Source: Octopus sinensis (taxonomy: Eukaryota). From it: a DNA stretch of 64,000 nt. Made by a program: the position numbers and the translations under genes. Of the stretch, positions 20,901 to 62,849 are shown in pieces. The DNA lies in NCBI RefSeq assembly GCF_006345805.1, contig NC_043010.1:17422001-17486000 (forward strand). Reading direction: 5' to 3'. Each line of letters starts with the position of its first letter. Position 1 is the first letter of the stretch. A model generated the notes under the pieces. The model worked only from the letters and a program-made list of their open reading frames with translations, did no database searches and was not told where the DNA came from.

Positions 20901-23900
20901 GACTTAGAATTAAATCCTCTGTTCAATAGGTATGCATCCAGGTACTCAACATGAAATCAAAGTTTCTTTGTGAAAGACTAGAAAACCTACACCAACAACA
21001 TGAAACAGAATCAGAACTAGGAAAAACAAAAAAAAAAGCACAGACAAAAGACCTCCACATGGCATTAGACTAGCAAAATGTCAAAAGTATTTGATCTCAG
21101 AAAATACCAAGGAGTTGAAAAGCTTTTTCATTTCTGTTACTGTTTGAATGTGGTGCTTTCTTCTCGATGTGTTGTAAATGGATAAACTGAAAGCTGATAT
21201 TGTCAAAGAAGTACAAGAATTCTACAGTCACTAAAGTCTTTTGTCATTAATCTTTTGTCTCAGTTATCCTGGTTCTGTCCATCCTACAGAATTGTCACTG
21301 TTCAAGATCTCTTATCAACAAGTGACATCTGCCTTGGAAATCTCTGCTAATATTTTGCAAGTATTTCAATTCTACCCACCATCACCCCTCTCCATATGCA
21401 TAAATTCCATTCTACTAGGTGTCACACTCACTCTTCAAGACATTCAATCAAAACCAACAACTCTCCTCCCCCCACAAAATCTGCAACTGCTATAAATGGT
21501 TTAAGGCAGAAGTGGGAAACCCTTGCATGTTGGAAAGCTACTTGACAAGCTTATCAGCTGCATGAGACAACTGCATTCAACAAAAATTTCCACTGCTAAA
21601 TCTGTTATTTTCTAAAATTTAATTATTCCTCCTCATCATCATAAGATGTAATATTTCCTAATTAATATATTTTCTGTTAATTAAATTAAGTTTCCATTCT
21701 CAGCAAATGCTTAGCTACCAGCACTGACAAGAAAACATGACTCAGCAACCTGCACTACACAATTGCTCGTTATTTCACTTGGTGGACATAAACACTCTTT
21801 TAGCCCTGTGTTCTGTGTTAATGTGAATTGAATGCTTTGACAAGATCTAATAGGGGCCAAACCCTGCATCGTGCTCCACTGTCTGCTTAAGCATGGTTTC
21901 TATAGTGGAACATCCTTTCTAATGCCAACCACTTTGTAGCATGTACTGGGTGTCTTTTTTTTTCATGCCACCAGCGCCAGTGAGTTTGCCTTGCAGTGTG
22001 CAAGAGTACGAAACCCAAATGGGGCTGCATTATACTCAGAGACAAAGGGTTAAAGTACGAGAGAAGGAAGCAGTATGGAACTTTTAGAAGAGAAAATGGG
22101 AGTGGGGTGAAGCTGGGAGAAATAATGGTGATGGGTGTTTGTGTGGACCCTCAAGGTATAAAGTGAATGGGGGAGGGGGGAGAAGAACTAGGAATGTGGT
22201 TGGGTGCGTAGCAGCTGCAAGGCTGTACGAGGTGATGGGGAGTGGGGGTGAATTGGATGACTGAAGAACAAGTGTTGAGGGGTGGATAAGGGAGTATTTT
22301 TATATTCCCTTATCCACCCCTCAACACTTGATCTACGCCGCATCCTTCGTGTCCGATGGCATCACTCTGTCTCCAACAATTCGGTGCGACACCAGTGCAG
22401 AATCACATCCCTCCGACAAGTCATCCTAACGAGACGTCTGCGTTGGCTGGGTCATGCCCTCCGTCGTCAACCAGGGGAATTCATCTACGAAGCAATTGCC
22501 CCAGCTCCCCTTCAGGGTTGGCGAAAGCGATGTGGTGGACAACGAAAAACCTGGCTGATGACAGTCAAAGCTGATCTGGAACCCAACCTACAAAGCAATT
22601 GCCCCAGCTCTCCTTCAGGGTTGGCGAAAGCGATGTGGTGGACAACGAAAAACCTGGCTGATGACAGTTCAACGCTGATCTGGAACCCAACCTAGACCCC
22701 ATATCTACGGCGTTCGCCGCTGGAATAAGGAGTGGTTGAATATCACGTGGTCGTTAACCTCAAATCGCTGGGTCTGGTTGGCGTTTGTGAGAGATGCAGC
22801 ATTGAGGATGAATGAAGCCAGCTCAACCCACCCCGGGTGAATGCTGTCTCAAGTCAAGTCAAGCCAAGTGGATAAGGGGTTGGGATGGCCAATAATGCAG
22901 GGAGGAGGGTGAAGAGCAATAGAATATAGAGGAGAAGGAAGAGAGTGACATGACATGTGAAAGGGAAGACACAAAATATTAAAAAGGCAGGGTTTTAGTA
23001 GAAGCACCTCTGTCATACCATTTTTTTCTTTTCTTTTTTTTCCCCTCCCTTTACCAAAAATTTCTCCAGGCAATTACAATTACCTTAACCCTTTCATTAC
23101 TGCATTAATTTTGAGATGTTCTGTGTTTCTTTCGGTTACTTTAAATATAACAAAGAATTTAGTAAAATAACTTAGTTATTATTAAGCTAGTGTTGGGAAC
23201 ATAAATTGTGACTAAGGTTTAGTGGAAGATTTTAATTCAAAACTTATGGAAACAAGACATTTGTACTCAGAGCCAGAGCCGGTTTCAGCCGGGTTGGTAT
23301 GAAAAGGGTTAAGCAAGTAATTAGAAATTAATTTGTAATTCATTGGAAAGACAGGGTTTTAAATAAAATAAAAAGTAATCAGCCAAAAGATATTCTAATG
23401 TAATGGTTTTTCCCTCAAACATTATTGTTTCAGAAGGTTGCATTTAGTCACTTCTTGTCTTGAGGCTTAACAACGGACGTTTAAGAACGTGACCTTGAGA
23501 TATTAGTGAAATAAAGGAAAGGGGGACAGTTTTTGTAGAAACTCTTAATGAAGGTAAGCAGATTTGAAAAAAAATGAAAATAAAATATTCAAAAATAGCA
23601 CCCAAAACATAATCAATAGCACATCTATATGGCTGTGTGGTAAGAAGCTTGCTTCCCAACCACATGGTTCCGAGTTCAGTCCCACTGTATGGGTGAGTGT
23701 CTTCTACTATAGCCTAGGGTTGGCCAAAGCCTTGTGAGTGAATTTGGTAGACAGAAACTAAAAGAAATCTGTTGTGTGTGTGTATATAGGTATGTATTTG
23801 TATGTCTGTGTTTGTCCCCCACCATCACTTGACACCCGATGTAGGTGTGTTTATATTCCCATAACTTAGCAGTTTGGCAAAAGAGATCGATAGAATAAGT

Positions 23901-26132: not shown

Positions 26133-28629
26133 AATGGAGCTTATCTATAATTCCTTCCTATGACATGTTAAATGGCTTTACATTGATAAAATAGAAAATT
26201 TAGCCATAAATGTTGCTTACAGTTGGTAAAAGTTTGTAATATTTCCTAATTAATATATTTTCTGTTAATTAAATTAAGTTCCCATTCTCAACAAATGCTT
26301 AGCTACCAGCACTGACAAGAAAGCCTGACTCGGCAACCTGCACCATACAATTGCTCGTTATTTCACCTGGTGGACATAAACGCTCTTTTAGCCCTTCCTT
26401 CCATCCATGACTTAGTGGAATACCAAGGATGTGACAACTGAAGGGAGAGAGAAGAGTGCACCAGCACTCAGCTGGTTCCCATTTACAGCCAGGTCATCTG
26501 GAGTAACATGAAATGAAGTACCTCATTCAAGGCCACAATGCACTCACCTTCACTTGTACATTCTACTATAATTAATTATGGTTCATCATCGTCATCATTT
26601 AGCGTCTGTTGTTCATGCTGGCATAGGTTGGACAGTTTAACCAGGGCTGGCAAGTGGGAAGGCTGCACCAGACTCCAGTCTGATTTGGCATGGTCTCTAT
26701 GGCTGGATGCCCTTCCTTATTCCAATGGGTGCTTTTACATGTCACCGGCATGGCTGCTATTTGTGTGATATGACTATAATTTCACTTGGTTTGCCGGGTC
26801 TTCTCAAGCACAGCATATTGCCAAAGGTCTCGGTCATCAGTCATTGCCTCTGTAGAGGCAATATATCTTAATGACCCGTATAATTAATACATTGAAATCG
26901 TTTCCCTACTTGTTTAGATATAGAGGAATTAGCAGTATCGCCTGGTGTTGCTCGGGTTTGTTTCGACCCTTTAGAATTGGAATTTTTGAAAAGTAAAAAT
27001 TTTGTATTATGTAGCTTGTTATTCTCGTTAAGTGAACATTTTTCTGGTTGAAATACACCAAAAAATGGCGATACAGCAGCAGTCAAAAATTGAACAAAGA
27101 TTTTAGTCACAAAGAGTATAAAATAAGGTTCTTTTAGGAAGTTGCATTAAAAAAAAAGTCTTTGTTATGACAAGAAATTAAAATAGGAATACGTCCAGTG
27201 AATAATATTGTTGTTTTGGTTGTAATGTTTGCTGACTCGGCCATCTTAACTGACATTCTAACCACAACAATCCATAAAATGCATGCTGCCAGTGAGATAT
27301 TAGTCTGTTGCAAGTCATCCTGAATATTATCATTATTATAACTCAGTCCGGAGCAAACTGGTTAGGTTTGATTTTTGAAGAAAATTGTTTAATCAAACTA
27401 TCAGCTGAGTCACTATTCTAACATTTGCAAACAATGAGAAAGACCTCGTTTGATGAAGTTGTGATTAGAGCACAAATAATACACATAATGGTATATGTGG
27501 ACACTGGAGCAATGGCTGCTGTTCCTTCGGTTTAGTCATGAAAGTGGATCTTATTCAATGAAACGATGCTTCCATTGTGTTTCATTATTGAATATTTTGG
27601 TTTGACTTTGAATTTCTCAATGATAATAATATTGATGCTGGCTGGATGAAAATGGTGAAGTTGGATGGGTCCTTAATGTTGGTTTCAAATTTTGATACAA
27701 GGCCAGCAATTTCATTGACCCCATTGCATAACTGGTACTTATTTTATTAATCCTGAAAGAATGAAAGGCAAAGTGAACCTCAACAGAATTTGATCTTGGA
27801 ACATAAAGCATTTTGCTTGGTGTTCTAAAAATTCTTGCAGATCGCTGCATTAAGATGGGTCCTTAATAATGAAATGAAATGATAATCACCAAGGTTGTGT
27901 TTTCTCATCAAGGCCAAGACTTTGAAATATTGGTGAATGGTTGGAAGAAAGACTAACTTGTTTATATCAATGATTATAGTGACCTTGATAGTAGTGAAAC
28001 TCTAAGCTTCCTTTGTTTGAGATTAACGAGCAACTTCTGGTTATAGTGAAATCCCTTAACAGATGTCCAGATGTTGGTGTTTAGCTAAAAGATGCCAAGT
28101 TAAAACCTTTCAACATGTCTAGGACTTGAGCAGGAATATGTATTGTCACCACTTTTTCATAATTTTTATGACCTGGGTTGACATGTGCAGCCATTGTGGA
28201 GGTGGTATCGCAATCAGTGGTCGGCTGATACTTGCACACAACATTGTACTACTTGGCTCATCAGAAGATAATCTCCAGAATGCACTGAATGGGTTTGCTG
28301 CTGATTGATGCAAGGCAGTGATGAGAATTAGGATTGCAAAGACTTGAGACATTGGTCCTCTCCAAGAAAGTCTTCCCAGTGCAGTTTGTATCTTAGAGGA
28401 AAAGTTTAAATATCTCAGGGCCATATTCAGGAGTGATGGGATTCAGAAGGCTGAATTGGATTCTGGAATTGCAGGTGCTGCCAGTTACAAGACTATATAT
28501 ATATATAATACATATGTATTATATATGATGGGCTTCTTTCAGTTTTCATCTACCAAATTCACACAAGGCCTTGGTCAGCCTTGAGTTATAGAAGACACTT
28601 ACCCAAGGTTCTATCTCTCTCTCTCTCTC

Positions 28630-28660
<31 letters not shown>

Positions 28661-31600
28661 TGCACTCGGCTGAACTTAAATTTTTTACACATGAATAAAT
28701 AATTAGTATAATTTGATTAGACTGAGATTTGAAACCTTTCTGTCAATTTCCGTAATCTTCCAATATAAGAACAAACAAACAAAATACAAACCCTTTGTTT
28801 TTTTGCAAAATTATTGCCTATATGCAGCTCCAAAATAGTTGGAAGCAATTGTGAAAATTTCCAAGTTGTTTAAAACTATCCACACTTTTCAGTGCAGTTT
28901 TCACCTTTTCCTGGAAGTCCACACTGTGCATGCGCTGGGACAGTGATGCAGTCTTTGGAATTGATCAGCTCATTCTTGTATACTGGACTCCTCTGGTGCT
29001 GGTTATCTACAGCCATCAGCAAACAGCAGTTCCCCCAAAATTAGATGCTTAATCTTGATTTTTTGCTTGCAATCTGTAATGCTAAACAACTTGCTACCAT
29101 TTCTGTACCTAACACCAATTTCAGGTCAGGTTATGGTTCTCAAGATCTTTTGCGACATGACAGAAAAACATGATATAAAGAAGCTGCTAATCCATTTGTT
29201 CTTAACACTCACTGGCATGCATCATTTATTTAGTCGTGCTGTATGTACAAACATGGGCAGTGAGCAATATTTTGGGGGAGGTTTCTCTACAACCACCACG
29301 ATATCTTGTGTCAAAAAGCTTTTCATATCAACAAAAATCACACGCAGGGACTGATTCTGGTCTGTATACTTCTCTTTGATCTGTCTTACTGCAAAGATAT
29401 CAATAGCTTGTTTGCAGATAACCAAAGTAGTCAGCAGACTAAAATTATTAGTCTTCACACTAGCATAAAAATAATAATATAATAAATGAATTATTGTATA
29501 CAGTGCTCAGGTGCCCCACAACTTGTCAAAAGTGCATATAAGGCATATGCAATAATGTACAAATGTCTGGAAAGCGAACAGTGTATTAGTCAGATACATG
29601 TTTGCGTGTGTATGGAGGGGAGAAAATCAGATGTAGTGTTGGCAAATCTCAGGAAGCATGGAAGTTTTGTAGGATGCAGTGCTCCGACAACTAACAACTG
29701 AGGCTGGCAGTTTGTTCCATGCTTCACCAACAGAATTTGATCTTGGAACATAAAGCATTTTGCTTGGTGTTCTAAAAATTCTTGCAGATCGCTGCATTAA
29801 GATGGGTCCTTAATAATGAAATGAAATGATAATCACCAAGGTTGTGTTTTCTCATCAAGGCCAAGACTTTGAAATATTGGTGAATGGTTGGAAGAAAGAC
29901 TAACTTGTTTATATCAATGATTATAGTGACCTTGATAGTAGTGAAACTCTAAGCTTCCTTTGTTTGAGATTAACGAGCAACTTCTGGTTATAGTGAAATC
30001 CCTTAACAGATGTCCAGATGTTGGTGTTTAGCTAAAAGATGCCAAGTTAAAACCTTTCAACATGTCTAGGACTTGAGCAGGAATATTATTGTCACCACTT
30101 TTTCATAATTTTTATGACCTGGGTTGACATGTGCAGCCATTGTGGAGGTGGTATCGCAATCAGTGGTCGGCTGATACTTGCACACAACATTGTACTACTT
30201 GGCTCATCAGAAGATAATCTCCAGAATGCACTGAATGGGTTTGCTGCTGATTGATGCAAGGCAGTGATAGAATTAGGATTGCAAGACTTGAGACATTGGT
30301 CCTCTCCAAGAAAGTCTTCCCAGTGCAGTTTGTATCTTAGAGGAAAAGTTTAAATATCTCAGGGCCATATTCAGGAGTGATGGGATTCAGAAGGCTGAAT
30401 TGGATTCTGGAATTGCAGGTGCTGCCAGTTACAGGACTATATATATATATATAATACATATGTATTATATATGATGGGCTTCTTTCAGTTTCATCTACCA
30501 AATTCACACAAGGCCTTGGTCAGCCTTGAGTTATAGAAGACACTTACCCAAGGTTCTATCTCTCTCTCTCTCTCTCTCTGTATATATATATAATATATAT
30601 ATATATATAATATATATATTATATATATATATATATATATATTGCACTCGGCTGAACTTAAATTTTTTACACATGAATAAATAATTAGTATAATTTGATT
30701 AGACTGAGATTTGAAACCTTTCTGTCAATTTCCGTAATCTTCCAATATAAGAACAAACAAACAAAATACAAACCCTTTGTTTTTTGCAAAATTATTGCCT
30801 ATATGCAGCTCCAAAATAGTTTGAAGCAATTGTGAAAATTTCCAAGTTGTTTAAAACTATCCACACTTTTCAGTGCAGTTTTCACCTTTTCCTGGAAGTC
30901 CACACTGTGCATGCGCTGGGACAGTGATGCAGTCTTTGGAATTGATCAGCTCATTCTTGTATACTGGACTCCTCTGGTGCTGGTTATCTACAGCCATCAG
31001 CAAACAGCAGTTCCCCCAAAATTAGATGCTTAATCTTGATTTTTTGCTTGCAATCTGTAATGCTAAACAACTTGCTACCATTTCTGTACCTAACACCAAT
31101 TTCAGGTCAGGTTATGGTTCTCAAGATCTTTTGCGACATGACAGAAAAACATGATAATAAAGAGAAGCTGCTAATCCATTTGTTCTTAACACTCACTGGC
31201 ATGCATCATTTATTTAGTCGTGCTGTATGTACAAACATGGGCAGTGAGCAATATTTTGGGGGAGGTTTCTCTACAAACCACCACGATATCTTGTGTCAAA
31301 AAGCTTTTCATATCAACAAAAATCACACGCAGGGACTGATTCTGGTCTGTATACTTCTCTTTGATCTGTCTTACTGCAAAGATATCAATAGCTTGTTTGC
31401 AGATAACCAAAGTAGTCAGCAGACTAAAATTATTAGTCTTCACACTAGCATAAAAATAATAATATAATAATAATGAAATTATTGTATACAGTGCTCAGGT
31501 GCCCCACAACTTGTCAAAAGTGCATATAAGGCATATGCAATAATGTACAAATGTCTGGAAAGCGAACAGTGTATTAGTCAGATACATGTTTGCGTGTGTA

Positions 31601-34600
31601 TGGAGGGGAGAAAATCAGATGTAGTGTTGGCAAATCTCAGGAAGCATGGAAGTTTTGTAGGATGCAGTGCTCCGACAACTAACAACTGAGGCTGGCAGTT
31701 TGTTCCATGCTTCACCAACTCTTAGCGTGAAAAAATGTTTCCGAAAGTCATGGGAGCCGTGCTGTTTTCTGACTTTGTAAATATGTCCATGGGTGTTAGA
31801 CAGGTGGAGTTTGAAAAGGTGCTCAGAGTTATTGTTTGTAAGATGGTTAATAATTTTATGGGTGTCTGCCAAGTCAGCTGCCAGATGTCGGAGTTTCAAT
31901 GTGTCCATGCCCAGGGAAGTAAGGCGTTCAGAATATGGCAAATCCCTGATGGAGGGTATTCTCTTGGCTGCATTCTCATTGTTTAGACAGGAAGGAATTG
32001 GGGGAGGATTTTATAACTGGATACTTTTTCTGTTGCCAAACCTTACCTGTTTTTCAAATAAGGGATTTTTCTTTCTGTTTTTCTGTTGTAGAGGAATTTG
32101 AAAGTGCAGGTCTAGAAAATGGTTAGTTGGTAGCAAATAACAAATGTCTCCATTTGTAGTTTAATGTGTTTTGGCTGTAAGCATTCACACCATTATATAC
32201 TCCTCCACACACACACACACACACGCGCTATATGGTTAAGAAATTTGTTTCCCCACCTCATAGTTTTGGGTTCAGGCCACCCAAAGTCTTTGGTGAGTGA
32301 GAATAAAATCTCAGCTGGAATTTTAAAGGGATCCTCCCACATTGAATGGCATAAATGTCTGTTTATACCACATATATATGCCAGGCAAAAAGGGTCAAAC
32401 CAGTTTTAGTCTGGTTAAATAGCGATGATTGTGGTTTTGGAGTGACTATGTCAACCAGTTTACCTGCATTTTTTTCAATATAACTTTTTTGTTATTTGTC
32501 CCTCCTTTCTTAGAAACGATGATTCATATAAAATAGAAAGGTGTTGGAGTACTGAAGACACCGCTGTTAGTCTCACCTTCATGCTTCATTCATTTAAAGT
32601 GGAAATGCTTCATGTTTAAAATATTGCACTCGGCTGAACTTAAATTTTTTACCAACCAAACAGCCCTCCCCTCCCATTAACATAAAATTCTGATTTATTT
32701 GAGGTTGTTATAAAAAGGAGTTTTTCTCTAATTGTCAATACTAAATGAACCAGACAAACTGAAGCTGTGGTCTGCCAATCCCTGGTTCAAATGATTGATA
32801 AATATTTATACAAACGGTCCTGAAGTATGCAGTCTAAAGAAAAAACTGTCTTATTTTTTCGTTAGTTATCTCTAAAATTATTAATTGTGGGCAATTAATT
32901 AATTTATAGCTGTTCTATTAACTAGTTTCTTGAAGTTAAAATTAAAATTCTCTTCGATCCTTTCCTTGCCGTGAAAAAACCTGATTAGAATATTTTTTGT
33001 TATTTAATTAAGAGAAGAAAAAAAGGATGTATTCAGTTAAAATAAAAGACCAGTTTCTTTTGTTCTTTGATTGATTCTGGTCATGCTGGAATACTGGCTT
33101 ATTTTTGTTTAGAATTGAACTTTTCAAGCAGTTCCACATAATATTTTATAATTTAAAGTTCACAGTTCAATTGCAGGTAAAGTCTTGTTCCATTTTCTTA
33201 TCAAAAATAAAGCCCAGGATATAATAATGAATGTTGAAGTGAGAGAGAGAGAGGGAAAGGAAGGGGTAGGAGTAATTAGACGATGTCATTCTAGGAAGTA
33301 TCCATTATATAGTTTCCCCCCAACCTTTTCAAATGATACTTCCTGTTTTTAATTAAATCTTTAATTATAAGCCTCTGTAATTATTGTTAGCATTTAGTCT
33401 GTTATCAACACTGCCATTACTTTCACCATACATATTACAATTGTAAAGCTTTTAATTGTTGTCATTACTGCTAATTATGAAATGAATTCCATCCATCAAG
33501 AATATTTTTTCTATCATCTTGATAATTTTCACTGTCAACAGCATTCATTTATACACAATCTTCTCACCAATCATCCTTAGTTTCAATAAATTGTGTATAC
33601 TGTGTTTAATAACTTTGGATCCTGTTGGTCAATTGCTAAATACTTTCTCAGATTGAGGGTCTAAACAAAATCTGATGTGATTATTATCTGCAGTTCCTGC
33701 TTGCTTACGTCTTTGAATGTTCAGTCTTTCTGTAGAGTATGACAGTTGTGTGTGTTGTATAACTGCAGAAAATTACAAATGTATAATATCAGGTGCTGTA
33801 ATAAAAAGTACAAGTGGGAGTTTGCACGTAAAGCAAAGAATTCTTTCTACTAAAGGCACAACCCCTGAAATGTTGCGGAGGATTACATTGGCTCCTTTGC
33901 TCAACTAGTATTCATTTTATTGACCCCTAAAAGAGATGAAAGCCAAACTCAACCGTGGCAGAATTTAAACCTAGATTGTCAAGCTGGAAGAAATGCTGCT
34001 AAGCATTTTGTCTGGTGTGCTAACAATTCTAGCAGCTTGTTGCCTTGGAGTGAAGAATAATGGTAAACTAAAGATGCATCAGTAAGGTCTCTAAGAAGAC
34101 TTCTTTTCCAAACAGTCCCACAGAGATGTGATTTGGCAAAACCTCTTTACATCTCAACACTATTCTGTACAGCAGGTAAAAGGAGTTAAGTATAATGTTT
34201 GCCTAACAAAATCCACTCCTAAACCTCATACAGATTCTTCCCCCATCTGTGTAGACATTAAAGAAATCTTTAAAAAGGCTTATTTTAAATTCACATATTC
34301 CTTGTTGATAGCCAACATGGCTTCTGTCTCTCGGTTCTCAACTAAACTGTAAATAACCCATCTGTTACTCACTTCTCAACTCTTGTGTTAAAACCCAAGA
34401 TTAAAGTCAGTTTAAGCAAGATTTTAATTTATTTAATTTATTTGCCATCATCCCTTGAGCTATAAAGATATGATTCAATATTTAAAACAACAATTAAATT
34501 CCCTCGTGACAATTCCACTGTTGTCGTTATAATAATGCAGTTTTACTGAAATAAAATTATTACACATCAACATTCATTAGATTCTCTTTGTTAATTCTGA

Positions 34601-55400: not shown

Positions 55401-58400
55401 CCTCCCTACCACTGTCTCTGGATTTTTTTTTTAACTAGTTTTCTTTCCCTAAAATGTACTTCTGCCCTGTTTGCTTAAATCTAAAATAATTCACGATAAA
55501 CATCACTCACCCACTTTTCCAAATACTCTGGGAAATTGATCCAGTGTCAAACTAAACAACAACAAAAAAAAAAAGGGTTACATTTTGGTGATAGTTTATC
55601 TCTCTTTACAGTCTGAGCTCAAATTCTGTTGACTTTACCTTTCATCCCCTCAAGGTCAAGTACTGGGATCAATATAATCAACTTAACCATCCCCTAACAT
55701 TGCTGGCCTTGTGCCAAAATTTGAGACCAATATTATAATAGATTTTGAGGACTTTATCACCTCCCCTAACAAAAATAACTTACATTTGTATCTATTATAT
55801 TGAAAAGCATTTTGTTGTGTTTGGGTCAGGACACACGACTGTTTGCTTCAGTTTGTGTGGCTGGAATAAAGTTTCTCCTCCTGCTTTGCTTTACAGTGGC
55901 TCATTGCCACCACTACCACCACCATATTGTGTCTCTGTTTCCTATATTAGTTTGACAGTTTGACAGGATCCAATGGGTCAGAGGACTACATCTGGTCCTT
56001 GTGTCTCATTTGGTGCAGGGTTTCTATGGCTGGATATCTTTGTTAGTATCAACCACATTACAGAGTGTACCTGGTACATTTTCATGGCACCAGCACTGGT
56101 GAGGCTATCTTGCCATCAGCAACACTGAAGAACCCTGGCATTGTCACAACTTTTATATGTCACTGGCACGTAAAAGGCACCATTTGAGTGTGGCTGATGC
56201 TAGTGCCACTTGACTGGTTCCCATGCCAGTGGCATGTCAAAAGCACCATTTGAGTGTGGCCAATGCTGCTTAACTGGCTCCCGTGCTGGTGGCACATCAA
56301 AAGCACTAAAGCGCCATTTGACTGTGACCGATGCCAGTGCTGCCTGACTGGCTCCCATGCCGGTGGCATGTAAAAAGCACCCACTACACTCTTGGAGTGG
56401 TTGGCATTAGGAAGGGCATCCAGCTGTAGAAATCTTGCCAGGTTAGATTGGAGCCAGGTGCAGCCCCCTGGCTTGCCAGTTCTGTCAAACCATCCGACCC
56501 ATGAGAAGTGGATGTTAAACGACAACAACAATAGGATTTCAGGTGCAGTTTTTCATGGCACCTTCACAGGTGGGTGATGGGGGTCACCTCCTAGTTTGCA
56601 AAGTGATAGAAATCTTCTGTAAAGGACAAAACAGATTTATTATTGTGAAAGGATGGTAGTGGAGAGACTAAGAGAGAGAATAGGGTTTGTTTACCTATTA
56701 TATTTTGAGCATTTCTTAAATATTTTTCCTTAAAATTTGCCATTTTATGTTTAATATGCATTTTCTTTCCATCTTTTAGCAACTTAATATTAAATGTGTG
56801 GCTGTGATCAACGATACTGTTGGAGCCCTGATGTCTTGTGCCCACAGTGATCGAATGTGTTCTATTGGTATTATATTAGGTAGGTATTTATTATTTTAAT
56901 TTGTTAGAATTAAAGACTTGTCAAATAAAATATCAAAATATGAGAAACTTTGTGAAAAGTTAAAATTCAGACAAAAATGTTCTCGTACATTTAAGAAGCT
57001 TTGTGAATTGTTTTAGATTTTCCCATTTTTTTCTTTTTCTGCGCTTCCTGTAGACTGTTTTCAGTATCTACTCTAAAATTCCTTTAGAAATAATGGTTTC
57101 CAGTTGAATTCCAATCTGGATTTGAATGCATACAATACTTGTATATCGAGGAATAAGGAGGCAATTAATGGTGATCACAAAAATGTATTGTTGATGTAAA
57201 CATTTTTCAAAATGTTTCTTCTCTTAAATAGAGCTTAAAATGTGAAACTTGGGATTTTGTTAACAGCTCATCTGATGCATTTTAACTAAAATTCTCTGAC
57301 AAAGTATGTTTAACAGAGAAGCTGTAAGTTTGTGTTAGAGCCTTGAAATTAACACTTGGGTAAAACTTTCCTGAAATAAATTATACTTTTGAAAATGTAA
57401 GAGTAAACTGTAAAATGATGTGAAAGGAAAACAGTCCATCACTTTTATACGTTTGATAAGTTTATGGCCATGCGGTTAAGAAGTTCACTTCTCAATCATG
57501 TGATTCCAGGTTCAATCCTAATAGAAGGCACCTTGGACAAGTATTTTCTACCAAAGTTTCAGGTTGATAAAACCTTGTCGCTAAACTAGAATGAGGGCTC
57601 TTGGCTATAGTGTTTAGTGGTGTTTGCTCTGCCACTACCAAGCAAGAATCCACTTTGAGGGTAACTCCCTATCTTCATGTGTTGCCTCTTTCTGCAGTGA
57701 CCTCAAAGATGTGGTTTCTTATCCACACACCACCCATCTCAAGGTCATGACTTGTTCACTCTTTCCTCTTCTAACTAGGTTGTGTGTGTGCACGTGCATG
57801 TGTATGTATGTGAGAGAGAGAGAAAGAGACACCAAACAACTGAAAGCAGTTTGGTGGCAGTGTAAATAAACAATAAAAAAAAATGGACATTTTTTTTGTT
57901 TCCAAAGAAAGTTATTTGAGAAAAATCCAATTTGAATTGTCTGAACTCTCAAATGGTACTGCTGCTTTGATTCACAAGATGGGTCGATCTGAAGTCACTG
58001 TTGCTGTAGATGGCTCTCTCTACAGATCCCATCCTCATTTTCATGACTTAATGGTAGAAAAAATTAAAGCACTTTGTCCCCTTACTAGAGTAAGTAGATT
58101 TCTAAGTTCATTTAACTGAAATTTTTCTGTCAATCCACCTGAAGATTAACTGCATTTACAGTTAATCTTCTAAGATCAACTGGATTTCACTGATACATTG
58201 TTGAGATTGTCTCTTCAAAACTCCATGGCCATTACCTAAAACAATAAAAGCATAATTCGTGTCTGCAAGATTCTGTCAATTTGGCCCTTTTATTATCTGC
58301 TGGACTGGGGACTGGGTGATAGAGAGTACAAAATATAATCTGCTGCCACAGAAAAACCTATGAAAATGACAAATTTTCACCTGTTTCTTCTTCCAAATTA

Positions 58401-58782
58401 ATTCTTATTTGAAAATATTTCTTTCAGGTACAGGTACTAATGCTTGTTATATTGAGAGACTGGAAAATGTTGACATTTGGAATGAAGATAAAAATGAACC
58501 AAAACAAGTGAGCGCCTTTAGCTTTCTCTTCATCTTTATTTAGCATCACTATTGTCTTGTTCTTTTCTTCGTGTCTTTAGTTTTTTTTATTTATTTCTGG
58601 CCGTAGACTGTGGCCATGCTGGAGCACCACCTCAAAGAATTTTAGTTGAAGGAAGCAACTTCAAGCCTGGTACTTATTCTGTCAGTCTCTTTTGCTGAAC
58701 CACTAAGTCACAGTGATGAAAACATTCCAACAACTGTTACCAAGTAATGATGAGGGGCAGACACACACACACACACACACAC

Positions 58783-58815
<33 letters not shown>

Positions 58816-59753
58816 GACAGGCTTCTTTCAGTTTCTGTCTACCAAATCCACTCACAAGGCTTTGGTTGGCTCAAGGCTATAGTAGAAGACACTTGCCCAA
58901 GGTGCCATGCAGTGGGACTGAACCACACAGCCACACCTGTGCCTATAAACTTTTCAGTAACCTCATAAATTCTTTTTCCATCCACCCACCTCCCTAAAAC
59001 ATTTCAATGGTTCTGATGATATTACTGACAATGTCTGTCTCAACAACGGTCAGCTGAAATAGATTTTCTTTTTTTTTTTTGTTAATCTCCCATATTTAGA
59101 TTTTTCTATGATTCAAACCTACTCAAGCTTCTTGAGAAAAATTAAGGCAGCGAGCTGACAGAAACGTTAGCACGCTGGGCGAAATGCATAGCCATATTTC
59201 GTCTGCTGTTACGTTCTGAGTTCAAATTCCGCCATGGTTGACTTTGCCTTTCATCCTTTCGGGGTCGATAAATTAAGTACCAGTTACGCACTCGGGTCGA
59301 AGTAATTGACTTAATCCGTTTGTCTGTCCTTGTTTGTCCTCTCTGTGTTTAGCCCCTTGTGGGTAGTTAAAAACAAAATATCTGAGAAAAATGAGAGAAA
59401 TGGAACCAAACAAAGTGCAGATTGAACTAGACTTCAGTTCTCTACGAGCTATGCCCCTCTTGTGACCTTGTAACACTACCTCCTCCTCCTCCTTCCTGCA
59501 GTGGTTTGACTTTTGTATTCTGCTCTCGTCTCATGCCTGGTGGTGTTGATACTTCCAAGTGATTCTGATGGTTCCAAATCCTCCAAAAGTTACATAATTT
59601 TTTTGTTTCGTTTTCTTCTGCAAAAAGGTTATAATTAACACAGAATGGGGTGCATTTGGAGACGATGGCTGTTTGGACAAGATTCTAACAGATTACGACA
59701 GGCAGGTTGACAAGCATTCCATCAACCCAGGAAAGCAACGGTATGTATGTGTG

Positions 59754-59795
<42 letters not shown>

Positions 59796-62700
59796 TATAT
59801 ATATATACATATATATGTTTTTTTTTTATATATCTGTAATAGTTTAGCTTTTGTTTTTGTTTTCTGTCACGTTGTGTTAGTTCTGTGTAAAGTATTTGAA
59901 GATTTGTTGTTGTTGTGGTGGTGGTGGTGGTGGTATGTGTAATTAAACATGTCAAACAACATTTTGTCATGAAGAAATGTTGGTATTTAAAAACAATCCC
60001 TTTCCCCAACTGGGTGCAGGTCTTATTCTGTCTTTAAGAGGTTTGCTTCACAACCTTGTTATCCTAGGTTCAGTCCCACTGCATGGCCCCTAGGCAAGTA
60101 TCTTTTCTTATAGCCTTAGGCAGACCAAAGCCTTGTGAGTGGAATTTAAAAAAAGGAAACTGAAGAGAAGCCTGTCCTGCATGGATCTTTCAATGATGCA
60201 GATTCAGTTGCTTGGTCAACTATGTTGCCTGCCCCTGAACTAATATCTAAGTGGCCCAATATTCCACAGACGCGTACCTTTATCTTAATTCTCAGACAGA
60301 CAATATTGTTGTTTGTTCCTTCTCAAGCCATGCCTGGTTCATAAGGGCCGGTTTCTTGGCGTAGAGGTTCCCCACCTGAACGGGACGCCGGTCCGTCGCA
60401 GGTGAGTTGCAAGATGTAGGGGGAAAGAGTGAGAGAAAGTTGTGGCGAAAGAGTCTGCAGAAGTTTCACCATTACCTTCTGCCGGAGCCACGTGGAGCTT
60501 AGGTGTTTCGCTTGTAAACACACACATCGCCCGGTCTGAGATTTGAACCCACAATCCCTCGACAGCGAGTCTGCTGCTCTAACCACTAGGCCATGTGCCT
60601 CCACAGGCAGACAATCAGCAAGGCACAGTGACAAATGTGACTCAGTGTGTGACAAAGGTACTGCCTTGTTACACAATGTATCACAAGGCCGTACTAGGAA
60701 GTTTAATTCCTGACATTGTCGTTCAAGGTTCAGTCCCACTGCATAGCAAGTATATTTGTATATGTATCAGTGTGTGTGTGTGTGTGTGTATTTACATCTC
60801 ACTTCACGCTTCAAACAGGTGCAGAATAAGAAAACCTCTACTTGAGAAACAGAATGGTTAGTGACAGGAATGGTATCTGACTTAAAAACAATGCCTCAAA
60901 ACTATTTGTTGGACCCATGCAAGAATGGTAAAACAATCATAAAGTTGCCATGGAAACCTGATCCCATTTTACAGAAAAGTACTGTTTGCACCTAAAATGC
61001 TCGCTGTGCCTAGTTTGCTTAGATTTCTTCTCTCTGTATGTGCACATGTGTGCATGTATATGTGCACACATCATTATCCTCATTCAATGTTCCTTTTCTA
61101 TGTTGGCATGGGTTGGATGGTTTGACAAAATCTAAGGCGGTGAGCTGGCAGAATCGTTAGCACGCCAGGCAAAATCCTTAGCAGTATTTCGTCTGTCGTT
61201 ATGTTCTGAGTTCAAATTCCACCGAGGTCAACGTTGCCTTTCATCCTTTCAGGGTCGATAAATTAAGTATTAGTTACGCACTGGGGTCAATGTAATCGAC
61301 TTAATCCGTTTGTCTGTCCTTGTTTCTTTCCTGTGTTTAGCCCCTTGCGGGTAGTAAAGAAATAGGTTTGATTGACAAAATCTGTTGTGCTGCATTGAGC
61401 TCCAGTCACCTGTTTTGGCTTGGTTTCTGTGGCTGGATGCCCTTCCTAGTGCCAACCCCTTTGCAGAGTGTGTGTTGGGTGCTTTTATTGTGCACTTGCA
61501 CTAGTGAGGTCACCAAGTAATGTGCAAGGCAGGAGATAAGTGGGAAGGGGTGTGTGTGAGTGATGGTGGGAGGGATGTTATGCCAGGTATTGAGGGGGAA
61601 AATATATGAGAGAGAGACACACAGGTGTCTTGCTACAGAGGGGATCCATGGTTACCCCATTTGTAAGGAACTGGAGAGAAGATAAAGATGGAGATAATTG
61701 GGATGCTTATAGTATAATATATTTTTTATTTTACTTTACAGATTTGAGAAGACAATATCTGGAATGTACATGGGGGAACTTGTCCGTCTTATACTTGAAA
61801 AGTTACGCAGACATAAACTGATTTTCAATGGTGTTGGCTCAGAAGAGTTATCGACTCGTGGACGGTTTTACACAAAATATGTTTCTGAAATTGAAAGGTA
61901 AACGTGAAAATATTTTCTAATGTAAAATCTATGGTGTTCAATAATTTCTTTTCTCCTTTCTTTTTTGTTGGTTTTGTTGTTTATTTTTATGTTAGCAAAG
62001 AGAAATTGATGGAAAATAGCTTTTTTAAAAAAAAGTCCAATTTGCAGCAGTTGAAATAATGGCCTGTAACTCCTGGAAAGATCACTTCAAAGGTGCTGCA
62101 TCATTATATATATGTATGTGCATGCATATATATTTTCTCAAACAAAAAAACCACAGCATCATGCCTATGCAATACATGGATAACTTTTTTAATTTAATTT
62201 TGTTTCAATTGCATACCCTGAGTTTATTACAACCCAACAGGCTTTCCACAATATCAGTGAATGTATTATTCACTATTTTCTATACATCAGAAGAGACATT
62301 TTATTTACGCAATGTGTCAAATGGATACTTATCGTTGACAAGGTCCAAAAAGGCTGAAACGTGTCTTACATTCTCGTGAGTCACTGGCTGAAATAGTGTT
62401 CACCTCACTCCCTTGTTTTAACACAACTTGTCTAGAGATTTCCTCTTGGATAAAAACCACAGCATCAGGGGTGTATATATGTTATGTATGAAACACAGAC
62501 GGTTACAGAGAGAAAGAAAGATCATTTTTGTCTGTAGTATAGTTTTGTGTTTTAAACCTTGAAACACATGCAAATTTTAAGAATCATTAAAATAGTATTT
62601 TTTTTATCCATTTACTTAACGGTTTCATTACATTCCAAAATGATTCTTTTCTTTGAATTACCATTTTCTTCTATATATTTAACGTTTTTTTTTTTTTTTC

Positions 62701-62849
62701 GTCTTGCAGTGATATTGATGATAGCTTCAAAAATACTAAACAGGTCTTTCAGGATCTTAACTTAACAAACTTTATGGTGGAAGATTGTCGTATCGCTCAG
62801 TATGTCTGCTCAACTATTTCCACACGAGCTGCCTATTTATCTGCCGCAG
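3692..62849 (+). CDS. HK: Hexokinase gene, multi-exon, probably the single-domain ~50 kDa type; 3' end outside the window
   Basis: Exons 37147-37309, 50381-50520, 51797-52012, 56780-56879, 58428-58507, 59628-59740, 61742-61897 and 62710-62849 join in frame via GT-AG. They give the hexokinase motifs [56 protein letters not shown] and ISGMYMGE. The 5' boundary depends on the tentative first exon. Confidence 0.93.
4741..5075. repeat. Compound (TA)n/(TG)n microsatellite with a higher-order repeated unit (tatatttgtctgtgcatatgtgtctgtttatatat)
   Basis: Seen directly; further TA/CA arrays lie at 3925-3965 and 4265-4350. Confidence 0.9.
12120..12527. mobile_element. MITE with ~28 bp TIRs and 8 bp TSD (Merlin-like termini)
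   Basis: Left end GGATCTTTCGGTTTGGACGGCAGTTTTT, right end AAAAACTGCCGTTCAACCCGAAAAGATCC; direct repeat GAAAGCCG at 12112-12119 and 12528-12535. Confidence 0.85.
13287..13690 (+). mobile_element. tRNA-derived SINE family A, copy with duplicated body
   Basis: B-box-like gagttcaaattcc and core gcctttcatcctttcggggtcgataaattaagtaccag each occur twice in tandem. Confidence 0.85.
13880..14620 (+). mobile_element. Degenerate 3' fragment of a CRE-like non-LTR retrotransposon (zinc knuckle plus restriction-like endonuclease)
   Basis: GC-rich island. Frameshifted peptides [69 protein letters not shown] and [12 protein letters not shown] resemble the WDAT.PDT / A..AE..K..KY / IQRGNA motifs of the RLE. 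Confidence 0.75.
16147..16560 (+). mobile_element. Two adjacent family A SINE copies, each preceded by AT-rich/(TTA)n sequence
   Basis: ttctgagttcaaattccgc and gatgtaatcgact motifs each occur twice. Confidence 0.8.
17200..17315. repeat. Near-perfect inverted repeat (53 bp stem, one bulge, 9 nt loop)
   Basis: 17200-17253 is the reverse complement of 17263-17315 apart from one extra A. Confidence 0.95.
18660..19019 (-). mobile_element. Non-autonomous Helitron
   Basis: On the minus strand it starts A|TCTATATATATAAAG and ends with the hairpin CCCGAGCAACGCCGGG then CTAG|T; no TSD. Confidence 0.8.
20476..20672 (-). mobile_element. Family A SINE (degenerate)
   Basis: ctggtactta...cgaaaggatgaagggtaaagtcgacctcagcagaatttgaactcagaa. 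Confidence 0.75.
21647..21807 (+). repeat. 161 bp dispersed direct repeat, copy 1 (copy 2 at 26235-26395)
   Basis: tgtaatatttcctaattaat...ggtggacataaacactcttttagccct is nearly identical at both sites. Confidence 0.9.
22331..22867 (+). mobile_element. 5'-truncated RTE-clade LINE 3' end with internal ~100 bp tandem duplication
   Basis: [18 protein letters not shown]...[11 protein letters not shown]...[11 protein letters not shown]; (CAAGT)n tail; TSD GTGGATAAGGG at 22282-22292 and 22868-22878. Confidence 0.88.
23089..23308. mobile_element. piggyBac-type MITE
   Basis: TTAA|CCCTTTCATTAC ... GTATGAAAAGGG|TTAA. Confidence 0.8.
23628..24000 (+). mobile_element. Family B CORE-type SINE
   Basis: tggctgtgtggtaagaagcttgc...gagttcagtcccac...ccaaagccttgtgagtg...ggtgctccagcatggcc. 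Confidence 0.85.
24903..25303 (-). mobile_element. Family A SINE, copy with duplicated body
   Basis: Reverse complement of the arrangement at 13287-13690. Confidence 0.85.
26929..27092 (-). mobile_element. Partial copy of the Helitron family at 18660
   Basis: tagcagtatcgcctggtgttgctcgggtttgtttcgaccctttagaatt... matches 18661 onward. Confidence 0.75.
28050..28480 (+). mobile_element. Old RTE-like reverse transcriptase fragment (duplicated at ~29997-30425)
   Basis: Degenerate peptides FIIFMTW...[18 protein letters not shown]...EKFKYL. Confidence 0.6.
28850..29440 (-). mobile_element. Old RTE-like reverse transcriptase fragment (duplicated at ~30830-31430)
   Basis: [27 protein letters not shown] resembles D.IF.LRQL.EK..E....L...FVD..KAFD. 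Confidence 0.7.
31455..31985 (-). mobile_element. CR1/L2-group LINE 3' end
   Basis: [16 protein letters not shown]...HGHIYKV...[17 protein letters not shown], followed by a 3' UTR and a (TTA)n-like tail; truncated copy at ~29465-29731. Confidence 0.85.
34820..35150 (+). mobile_element. Older CR1/L2-group LINE 3' fragment
   Basis: [13 protein letters not shown]...GHTYKI...[13 protein letters not shown], homologous to the 31615-31941 ORF. Confidence 0.75.
35723..35990 (+). mobile_element. tRNA-derived SINE with CORE/V-like motif
   Basis: A-box-like tggcttaatggttaag; ccttgagcaagacacttta...ccagtccactcagctg. Confidence 0.6.
37147..37309 (+). CDS. HK: Hexokinase exon (IETIVRPF...[15 protein letters not shown])
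   Basis: tttcag acceptor, GTAATA donor, 163 bp, phase 0 to 1; contains the VKMxPTYV motif. Confidence 0.95.
37575..37808 (-). mobile_element. Family A SINE
   Basis: Full-length match to the family on the minus strand. Confidence 0.85.
38468..38670 (-). mobile_element. Family A SINE
   Basis: Match to the family on the minus strand, with an internal deletion. Confidence 0.85.
39113..39490 (+). mobile_element. Family C non-autonomous retroelement with (GAT)n tail
   Basis: agggcatccagctgtagaaac...ccaacccatgctagcatggaaaacggacattaaacgatgatgat. Same orientation at ~52880-53210, 53935-54105 and 56160-56530. Confidence 0.75.
41047..41385 (+). mobile_element. Family B CORE-type SINE, well-preserved copy
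   Basis: A box tggctgtgtggtaag, B box gggttcagtccc, CORE-like caccttgggcaa, internal (TG)n and an A-rich end. Confidence 0.88.
41787..42335 (+). mobile_element. CR1 LINE 3' end (RT C-terminus and 3' UTR)
   Basis: [53 protein letters not shown]; AATAAA and (TTGAA)n tail. Confidence 0.9.
43288..43515. mobile_element. Degenerate TTAA-type MITE (related copies at ~19585 and ~47722)
   Basis: ttaacccattagc ... gctaaagtgattaa ends and shared internal sequence. Confidence 0.55.
44505..44845 (+). mobile_element. Family B CORE-type SINE
   Basis: Close match to 41047-41385. Confidence 0.88.
45543..46105 (-). mobile_element. Family C element, with internal sub-repeats
   Basis: (CAT)n...tttaacgtccgctttccatgctggcatgggttgg...ctggatgcccttcctaac; similar copies at 26585-26855, 39712-39880 and 43595-43910. 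Confidence 0.75.
47045..47570 (-). mobile_element. Family C element
   Basis: Reverse complement of 39113-39490 with additional 5' sequence. Confidence 0.78.
48292..48510 (+). mobile_element. Family A SINE
   Basis: aggcagtgagttggcagaaacattagcaca...gttctgagttcaaattcc...aaattaagtacc. Confidence 0.85.
49055..49352 (+). mobile_element. RTE/RTEX-like LINE 3' end
   Basis: [24 protein letters not shown]...LLLWKP...AMMDHEVWR, followed by a (TGA)n tail. Confidence 0.82.
50381..50520 (+). CDS. HK: Hexokinase exon with phosphate-1 motif ([22 protein letters not shown]...GTGTE)
   Basis: tttgtag acceptor, GTAAGT donor, 140 bp, phase 1 to 0. Confidence 0.97.
51797..52012 (+). CDS. HK: Hexokinase exon with sugar-binding signature (LFDHIADC...[11 protein letters not shown]...[12 protein letters not shown]...KRKG)
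   Basis: gtttag acceptor, GTAAGT donor, 216 bp, phase 0 to 0. Confidence 0.97.
52086..52270. mobile_element. piggyBac-type MITE related (inverted) to 23089-23308
   Basis: ttaatccttttgatac ... gtaacaaaaggg ends. Confidence 0.6.
52488..52858 (-). mobile_element. Non-autonomous Helitron, second subfamily
   Basis: a|CTAGCAGTATCGCCCGGCGTTGTTCGGG end shared with 18660; other end ...ttttatatgtaaaGA|t; internal tandem subrepeat. Confidence 0.78.
54555..55079. mobile_element. Foldback/MITE-like palindrome with a family C element nested in its right arm
   Basis: caattcaagacattccactaataa (54555-54578) pairs with 55056-55079; 54577-54655 pairs imperfectly with ~54660-54740; insert at ~54741-55055. Confidence 0.8.
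56780..56879 (+). CDS. HK: Hexokinase exon with catalytic Asp ([33 protein letters not shown])
   Basis: ttttag acceptor, GTAGGT donor, 100 bp, phase 0 to 1. Confidence 0.97.
57956..58089 (+). pseudogene. Displaced (out-of-order) hexokinase C-terminal exon or pseudo-exon
   Basis: Reads (G)[44 protein letters not shown] followed by GTAAGT. This is the adenosine-motif segment that should follow the exon ending at 62849. It is preceded by TG, not AG. Confidence 0.8.
58428..58507 (+). CDS. HK: Hexokinase exon with phosphate-2 motif ([27 protein letters not shown])
   Basis: ctttcag acceptor, GTGAGC donor, 80 bp, phase 1 to 0. Confidence 0.97.
58600..58940 (-). mobile_element. Family B CORE-type SINE
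   Basis: tggccatgctggagcaccac...ccaaatccactcacaaggctttgg...acttgcccaaggtgcc. Confidence 0.85.
59145..59368 (+). mobile_element. Family A SINE
   Basis: Full-length, well-preserved family match. Confidence 0.88.
59628..59740 (+). CDS. HK: Hexokinase exon ([38 protein letters not shown])
   Basis: Pyrimidine tract then caaaaAG acceptor, GTATGT donor, 113 bp, phase 0 to 2. Confidence 0.96.
60310..60604 (-). mobile_element. tRNA-derived SINE family D
   Basis: Minus strand: GGAGGCACATGGCCTAGTGGTTAGAGC (A box)...GGGTTCAAATCTC (B box), then a GC-rich body. Confidence 0.75.
61135..61365 (+). mobile_element. Family A SINE nested in a family C element
   Basis: Family C sequence (catgggttggatgg ... 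ctggatgcccttcctag) flanks it, with ttgacaaaatct on both sides. Confidence 0.85.
61742..61897 (+). CDS. HK: Hexokinase exon ([18 protein letters not shown]...[11 protein letters not shown])
   Basis: tttacag acceptor, GTAAAC donor, 156 bp, phase 2 to 2. Confidence 0.97.
62710..62849 (+). CDS. HK: Hexokinase exon ([13 protein letters not shown]...[16 protein letters not shown])
   Basis: T-rich tract then ttgcag acceptor, GTAAGC donor, 140 bp, phase 2 to 1. Confidence 0.96.

Follow-up and report, generated by a model that had tools for sequence, protein, structure and literature searches.

An intron of a hexokinase gene in Octopus sinensis holds a 189-bp copy of DNA from farther along the same gene, including the whole penultimate exon, and we put at about 0.8 the probability that this copy came from templated repair of a DNA break and is an inert pseudo-exon. 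The window, meaning the whole 64,000-nucleotide stretch that was analysed, stops 787 bases short of the true penultimate exon, and positions past its end are given in window numbering extended downstream (Table 1). The original prediction, made from the sequence alone, was that a C-terminal hexokinase exon sits four exons too early in the intron between the NDTVG and GTGTN exons, and that it most likely arose by duplication within the gene, the true exon lying past the window end. Both parts hold: the copy lies in that intron, four exons upstream of its normal position, and the suggested search past the window end recovered an intact, in-order second copy, 99% identical and with an AG acceptor.

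Table 1. Positions of the hexokinase exons, the copied segment and neighbouring features; numbers above 64,000 continue the window numbering past its end
Feature	Position	Strand	Remarks
Hexokinase NDTVG exon, 5' of host intron	56780..56879	+	P0002 mapping and splice check
Host intron containing the copy	56880-58427		Between NDTVG and GTGTN exons
Candidate cryptic acceptor, T-rich tract and AAG	57886..57907	+	Would open a 182-base exon at 57908
Duplicated segment, acceptor copy, 189 bp	57955..58143	+	187/189 identical to source
Pseudo-exon, copy of penultimate exon	57956..58089	+	No AG acceptor, intact splice donor, Phe-to-Ser at 58028
Perfect 12-bp inverted repeat, 6-base loop	58141..58170	.	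Overlaps right junction by 3 bases
Hexokinase GTGTN exon, 3' of host intron	58428..58507	+	Joined directly to NDTVG exon in RNA-type contigs
Hexokinase exon	59628..59740	+	P0002 mapping and splice check
Hexokinase exon	61742..61897	+	P0002 mapping and splice check
Hexokinase exon, phase 1 end	62710..62849	+	Spliced to true penultimate exon past window; P0002 mapping, RNA-type contigs
Source of duplication, past window end	64786-64974 (G000:C14:17486786-17486974)		
True penultimate hexokinase exon	64787-64920 (G000:C14:17486787-17486920)		ttcAG acceptor, Phe codon
Last hexokinase coding exon	65393-65512		Follows true penultimate exon

The best protein match to the gene, P0002, carries at its source the label hexokinase-2 isoform X2 (Octopus sinensis) and aligns in order, exon after exon, from 37147 to 65512. 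It matches the Pfam families PF00349 (241.8 bits) and PF03727 (270.6 bits), both above the curated cut-off, and the annotated octopus hexokinase spliced from the host gene is 473 aa long. With the downstream exon used, the seven exons from 56780 on translate to exactly the last 280 residues of P0002. The hexokinase gene needs no exon scrambling, because the in-order exons with the downstream copy give the P0002 sequence. The exon before the penultimate one ends in phase 1 at 62849, as predicted.

The original prediction described only the 134-bp exon part of the copy. The duplicated piece is longer and is made up of 1 base of pre-exon sequence, the exon itself, and 54 bases of the next intron. 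The exon part is uninterrupted and stop-free in the hexokinase frame, its 44-aa piece matches Pfam Hexokinase_2 (E 4.4e-7), and its GTAAGT splice donor recurs unchanged in the true exon. Where the cognate acceptor should be, the sequence is TG instead of AG, and the reported lack of a pyrimidine tract is borne out at that position (10/18 pyrimidines, against 12 to 17 of 18 at seven real acceptors checked), although a T-rich AAG stands 48 bases upstream. In the animal's own genome (G000), the exon part has two matches, itself and the downstream copy. The two copies are 6643 bases apart, and the true exon lies about 6.8 kb downstream of the copy. They differ at 2 of 189 bases, and the mismatch at 58028 gives Ser in the copy and Phe in the true exon. 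Judged by its sequence, the upstream copy is the derived one, because it has Ser at a site where, among the 41 other proteins whose motif is readable, 40 have Phe and one has Leu (4 of 45 gave no motif match). Neither flank of the copy has another match in G000 by a search that can miss common words. No poly-A/T tail is found at the junctions, nor is a target-site duplication, the longest word common to both junctions being 5 bases and wrongly placed. Hidden homology of the left flank to the acceptor region of the source was considered and rejected, since the similarity does not rise above chance (as high a score is reached by 80% of random windows).

Presence of the copy in other animals was judged from assembled contigs of seven distinct runs of 23 listed, leaving out two runs marked as a possible source of the assembly, and a junction was counted as bridged when a contig crosses it by at least 31 letters. 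Three of the four DNA-type runs bridge a junction by this rule (X5 the left, X7 the right, and X8 both), and the fourth, X3, falls one letter short of it, with 30 letters across the left junction. The copy is present in all four, and none of them has an empty, pre-insertion site; contig holes at 58172-58545 in X3 and X5 were not counted as absence. X5, X7, and X8 carry other organism labels and are about 2 to 3% divergent from the window in the intron, so that the proposed comparison of the orthologous locus finds the copy outside the reference animal. The copy is real DNA and is older than the split of the sampled lineages.

A comparison of the window with organism C shows differences at 4/134 exon positions in the copy and at 0/134 in the true exon, which fits neutral drift of the one against constraint on the other but is not significant (Fisher P = 0.12). 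Amino acid changes among the copies include Phe-Ser, Thr-Ser, and Val-Ile, of which the Val-Ile change in organism D, where the data cover the copy, may be a species difference. With the true exon taken as ancestor, two sites group the lineages differently: T at 57975 is found in the copies of organisms C and D and not in that of the window, and T at 58134 is found in the copies of the window and organism C and not in that of D. Lineage sorting or recurrent mutation could produce this conflict, as could gene conversion by the true exon. In X3, positions 57955-58133 are represented by one contig at about double depth, which has C at 58028, as the copy does, and for which T is not listed. Collapse of the two copies in assembly is the most likely cause, the less favored alternative being that the true exon was converted in that animal. 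Organism C runs also have a 20-base insertion relative to the window at 57344.

Use of the copy in transcripts was examined in three runs from three studies that we took as RNA by guess; none is on record as RNA, and the assignment is supported by their intron-less joins. Contigs from all three join the NDTVG exon to the GTGTN exon, with the copy-bearing intron removed whole, and all three have the penultimate exon followed by the last exon. Immediately before the penultimate exon, X12 has the 62710-62849 exon, and X10 and X14 have 406 letters, which equals the combined length of the three middle exons once 3 ambiguous letters are set aside. The spliced penultimate exon has the letters of the downstream exon in each run. 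In X14, which bears the organism A label like the possible-source runs, the site equivalent to 58028 has T, as in the downstream exon. This site is not discriminating in organism C, whose copy also has T there; however, that copy is changed at 57975, 57996, and 57997, and the RNA-type contigs of organism C are without those changes. A 58089-58428 join is absent from the contigs of the three runs, which drop rare variants. The mRNA check that had been proposed thus comes out for the downstream exon, and the copy is likely an inert pseudo-exon. The condition originally set for that status was a downstream intact copy matching all mRNA with none using the upstream one; the downstream copy is intact and used, and rare use of the upstream one is possible insofar as contigs drop rare isoforms.

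At its right end, the copy overlaps a short hairpin, for which comparable inverted repeats number 5 in 88,252 unmasked bases, and which is a candidate repair scar or fragile site. Of the 45 bases past the right junction, 87% are accounted for by 6-mers that recur in the 105 bases around them; 0.35% of 1440 background sites score as high (1.6% with 7-mers), and the hairpin itself supplies much of the score. This patchwork resembles the filler of synthesis-dependent end joining (PMC5728401). As in the account given there of filler at experimental breaks in flies, hairpins and short local copies lie within about 30 bases of the junction; unlike in that account, where the filler is short, the octopus patch is a 189-base copy from 6.8 kb away, and a link to the polymerase is putative here. 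With no empty site among the four DNA-type runs for comparison, the hairpin may just as well be a fragile site that was there before the insertion.

We propose that a germ line break arose in the hexokinase intron and would have been patched by a copy of nearby DNA from the same gene, through strand invasion and short synthesis, with end joining and snap-back filler closing the right end. The spliceosome would then skip the copy because its splice acceptor is missing. With both splice sites in place, a copy would cause a frameshift and would likely have been purged, leaving a survivor that begins at the exon edge. A bare 134-base exon put at this place does shift the frame, so that translation from the NDTVG exon onward meets its first stop at codon 106, and selection would therefore favor an acceptor-less copy. 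Such selection against acceptor-bearing copies may explain why the left end falls at an exon edge. The copy predates the divergence of the three lineages sampled, and it has drifted since. In favor of repair, the copy holds intron sequence and has neither a poly-A tail nor a target-site duplication. Against it, the left end is within one base of the splice acceptor, where a random DNA breakpoint would seldom fall; the source, 6.6 kb away, exceeds the 5-kb limit set in the literature for the proximal class; and without an empty site, microhomology, filler, and deletion are undefined.

Several other readings were weighed. The original prediction had named misassembly and real exon scrambling, by trans- or back-splicing, as alternatives, and nothing speaks for either except the original out-of-order look. 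Misassembly is contradicted by the junction-bridging contigs from other samples and organism labels, which carry their own substitutions, and scrambling is contradicted by a complete in-order gene with which the spliced contigs are collinear; we regard this pair of readings as almost certainly wrong. A tandem mutually exclusive exon was likewise rejected, on the TG at the acceptor position and the absence of the copy from spliced contigs. An improbable but more consequential reading is that the copy is spliced in at a low level as a cryptic exon, with the T-rich AAG at 57907 as its acceptor. The stretch from 57750 to 58070 has 19 AG sites, of which the one that would open an exon at 57908, 48 bases upstream of the pseudo-exon, has a T-rich tract and keeps the hexokinase frame. 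Its 14/18 pyrimidines exceed those of two real acceptors of the gene (12/18, one of them also an AAG), the added 48 bases are stop-free in that frame, the splice donor of the copy is intact, and a join to the last exon stays open until the natural stop. However, such joins occur in none of the three RNA-type runs, a contig of low depth in X10 continues past 57908 without splicing, all four annotated octopus proteins of the hexokinase cluster are 473 to 474 aa long with Phe, and the copy has gained amino acid changes in different lineages. If this reading were true, an onward join to the GTGTN exon would shift the frame to a premature stop, with nonsense-mediated decay likely to follow, and a join to the last exon would give an internally deleted hexokinase of 326 aa from which the four middle exons are missing, as is the true penultimate exon. 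It is similarly improbable that the repair scar is half-recruited, with some tissues splicing the copy in through the cryptic acceptor as a poison exon or as the 326-aa form, in which case sister octopus lineages would have in common a young isoform built from an out-of-order exon copy. We also noted a second strong-looking cryptic acceptor at 57779 (TAG, 16/18 pyrimidines), which would open a 311-base exon with an early stop and is unused in the RNA-type contigs.

The remaining readings accept an inert copy and differ on where the patch came from. A nascent or partly processed hexokinase transcript could have been reverse transcribed into the break, a template suggested by the left end, which matches the exon start to within one base, and by class 2 templated insertions, which are proposed to be RNA derived in the account of them that we draw on (PMC5110952). 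The copy, however, has 54 bases of unspliced intron and nothing of the preceding exon, and other local doublets of similar size are found in both orientations. To our knowledge, ordinary splicing does not produce an intermediate whose 5' end is free at an acceptor. An RNA template is the weaker alternative to a DNA template, and an unlikely one. Still less probable, to the point that we give it very little weight, is that a mobile element brought the piece in, through capture or transduction, or that a longer duplication was worn down to it by deletion. Helitron ends have a hairpin near the 3' end, as is seen beside the 3' end of the copy, and the intron contains SINE-like repeats; however, the lack of any other G000 match for the flanks (within the limits of a search that can miss common words), of a poly-A tail, and of a target-site duplication, together with the chance-level similarity upstream of the left junction, speaks against this origin. 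Repair of a break from a DNA template is the reading that we prefer.

A survey of similar duplications covered 692 kb of G000, consisting of 292 kb around the window and 200 kb from each of two other contigs, and took two-copy, non-tandem pairs of 70 to 1500 bases with at least 85% identity. It yielded 21 pairs, of which 11 lie within 10 kb, against 0.6 expected. These 11 local doublets, this locus included, are 77 to 199 bp long, with 6 direct and 5 inverted, and two others of them that were checked genome-wide have two matches each; among the remaining pairs, some may be rare repeats. The survey suggests that the duplication process described in vertebrates is also common in the Octopus sinensis genome. 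A same-strand bias hinted at by the first four pairs was rejected at 6/11 direct. Local doublet density is uneven, with 8 in the 292 kb of contig C14, 3 in 200 kb of C10, and 0 in 200 kb of C5. Within the window, 21647-21807 and 26235-26395 form a 161-bp direct doublet (94% identical, 4.4 kb apart, only two G000 matches) that is likely the same kind of event, and 27781-31719 is a tandem duplication of about 2 kb with 97% identity. Elsewhere, L003:5724-5912 and L003:7999-8182 form a 189-bp direct doublet (96% identical, 2.1 kb apart, two G000 matches), one left junction of which lies inside a perfect 12-bp AT-rich inverted repeat. Outside the 11, a 272-bp direct doublet (L005:4607-4878 and L005:5767-6027; 96% identical) starts with a fragment of a common repeat and has two full-length G000 matches along with many partial repeat matches. 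Hairpins occur at 3/44 doublet junctions against 2/977 background sites, but the count falls to 1/40 (P = 0.08) without this locus and one TA-repeat arm, and the hairpin is not established as a general mark of doublet junctions.

As it stands, the octopus copy is of little consequence. It is a clean example of a short local duplication by which an intron can gain an entire exon and the gene remain unaffected, and only proven use of the cryptic acceptor would give it more weight. It is also a caution that an "out-of-order exon" at the edge of a window can be a copy. Among the literature matches listed, no paper joins "repair-mediated duplication" and "cephalopod," and those for octopus hexokinase exon duplication hold nothing on this locus. 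Tandem duplication of mutually exclusive exons, as described in PMC8373072, likewise gives a homologous exon copy within the same gene; in contrast, the octopus copy is four exons from its parent, lacks an acceptor, has a phase incompatible with its position, and is absent from the spliced contigs. A retrotransposed copy, or class 1 templated insertion as that class is described in PMC5110952, was rejected on the lack of a target-site duplication and of poly-A. The class 2 templated insertion polymorphisms of the same account, ascribed there to germ line break repair, are closer in that a patch comes from elsewhere with neither of those marks, whereas their sources are distant and they are polymorphic in people; the octopus source is local and the copy is in 4/4 DNA-type runs.

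The nearest likeness is to the repair-mediated duplications of Pace et al. (2009), who described 824 in humans, within 5 kb of their source, with a mean length of 162 bp and a maximum of 619 (PMC2671141). Two of the human cases are whole exons, and intronic whole-exon copies are described; the ACSBG2 copy is inverted, whereas the octopus copy is in the sense direction but without an acceptor. Pace et al. sought inserts of at least 50 bp that match a single other genomic site, lie more than 50 bp away from it, and are free of poly-A/T; the octopus insert is 189 bp long, its exon part has two G000 matches counting itself, 6643 bases separate it from its source on the same chromosome, and its junctions have no poly-A/T. 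Unlike theirs, its source at 6.6 kb is outside the 5-kb class, a cut-off that the authors call ad hoc while estimating 41% of distant cases to be true repair-mediated duplications. Their survey, as reported, covers vertebrates only, whereas the host here is a mollusc, and in place of the marks that they read from empty sites, which 0/4 DNA-type runs offer, the octopus locus has a filler-like patchwork and a hairpin at the right end. The octopus copy works like a repair-mediated duplication and is placed in a broader kind, the short local templated duplication, rather than in the strict class.
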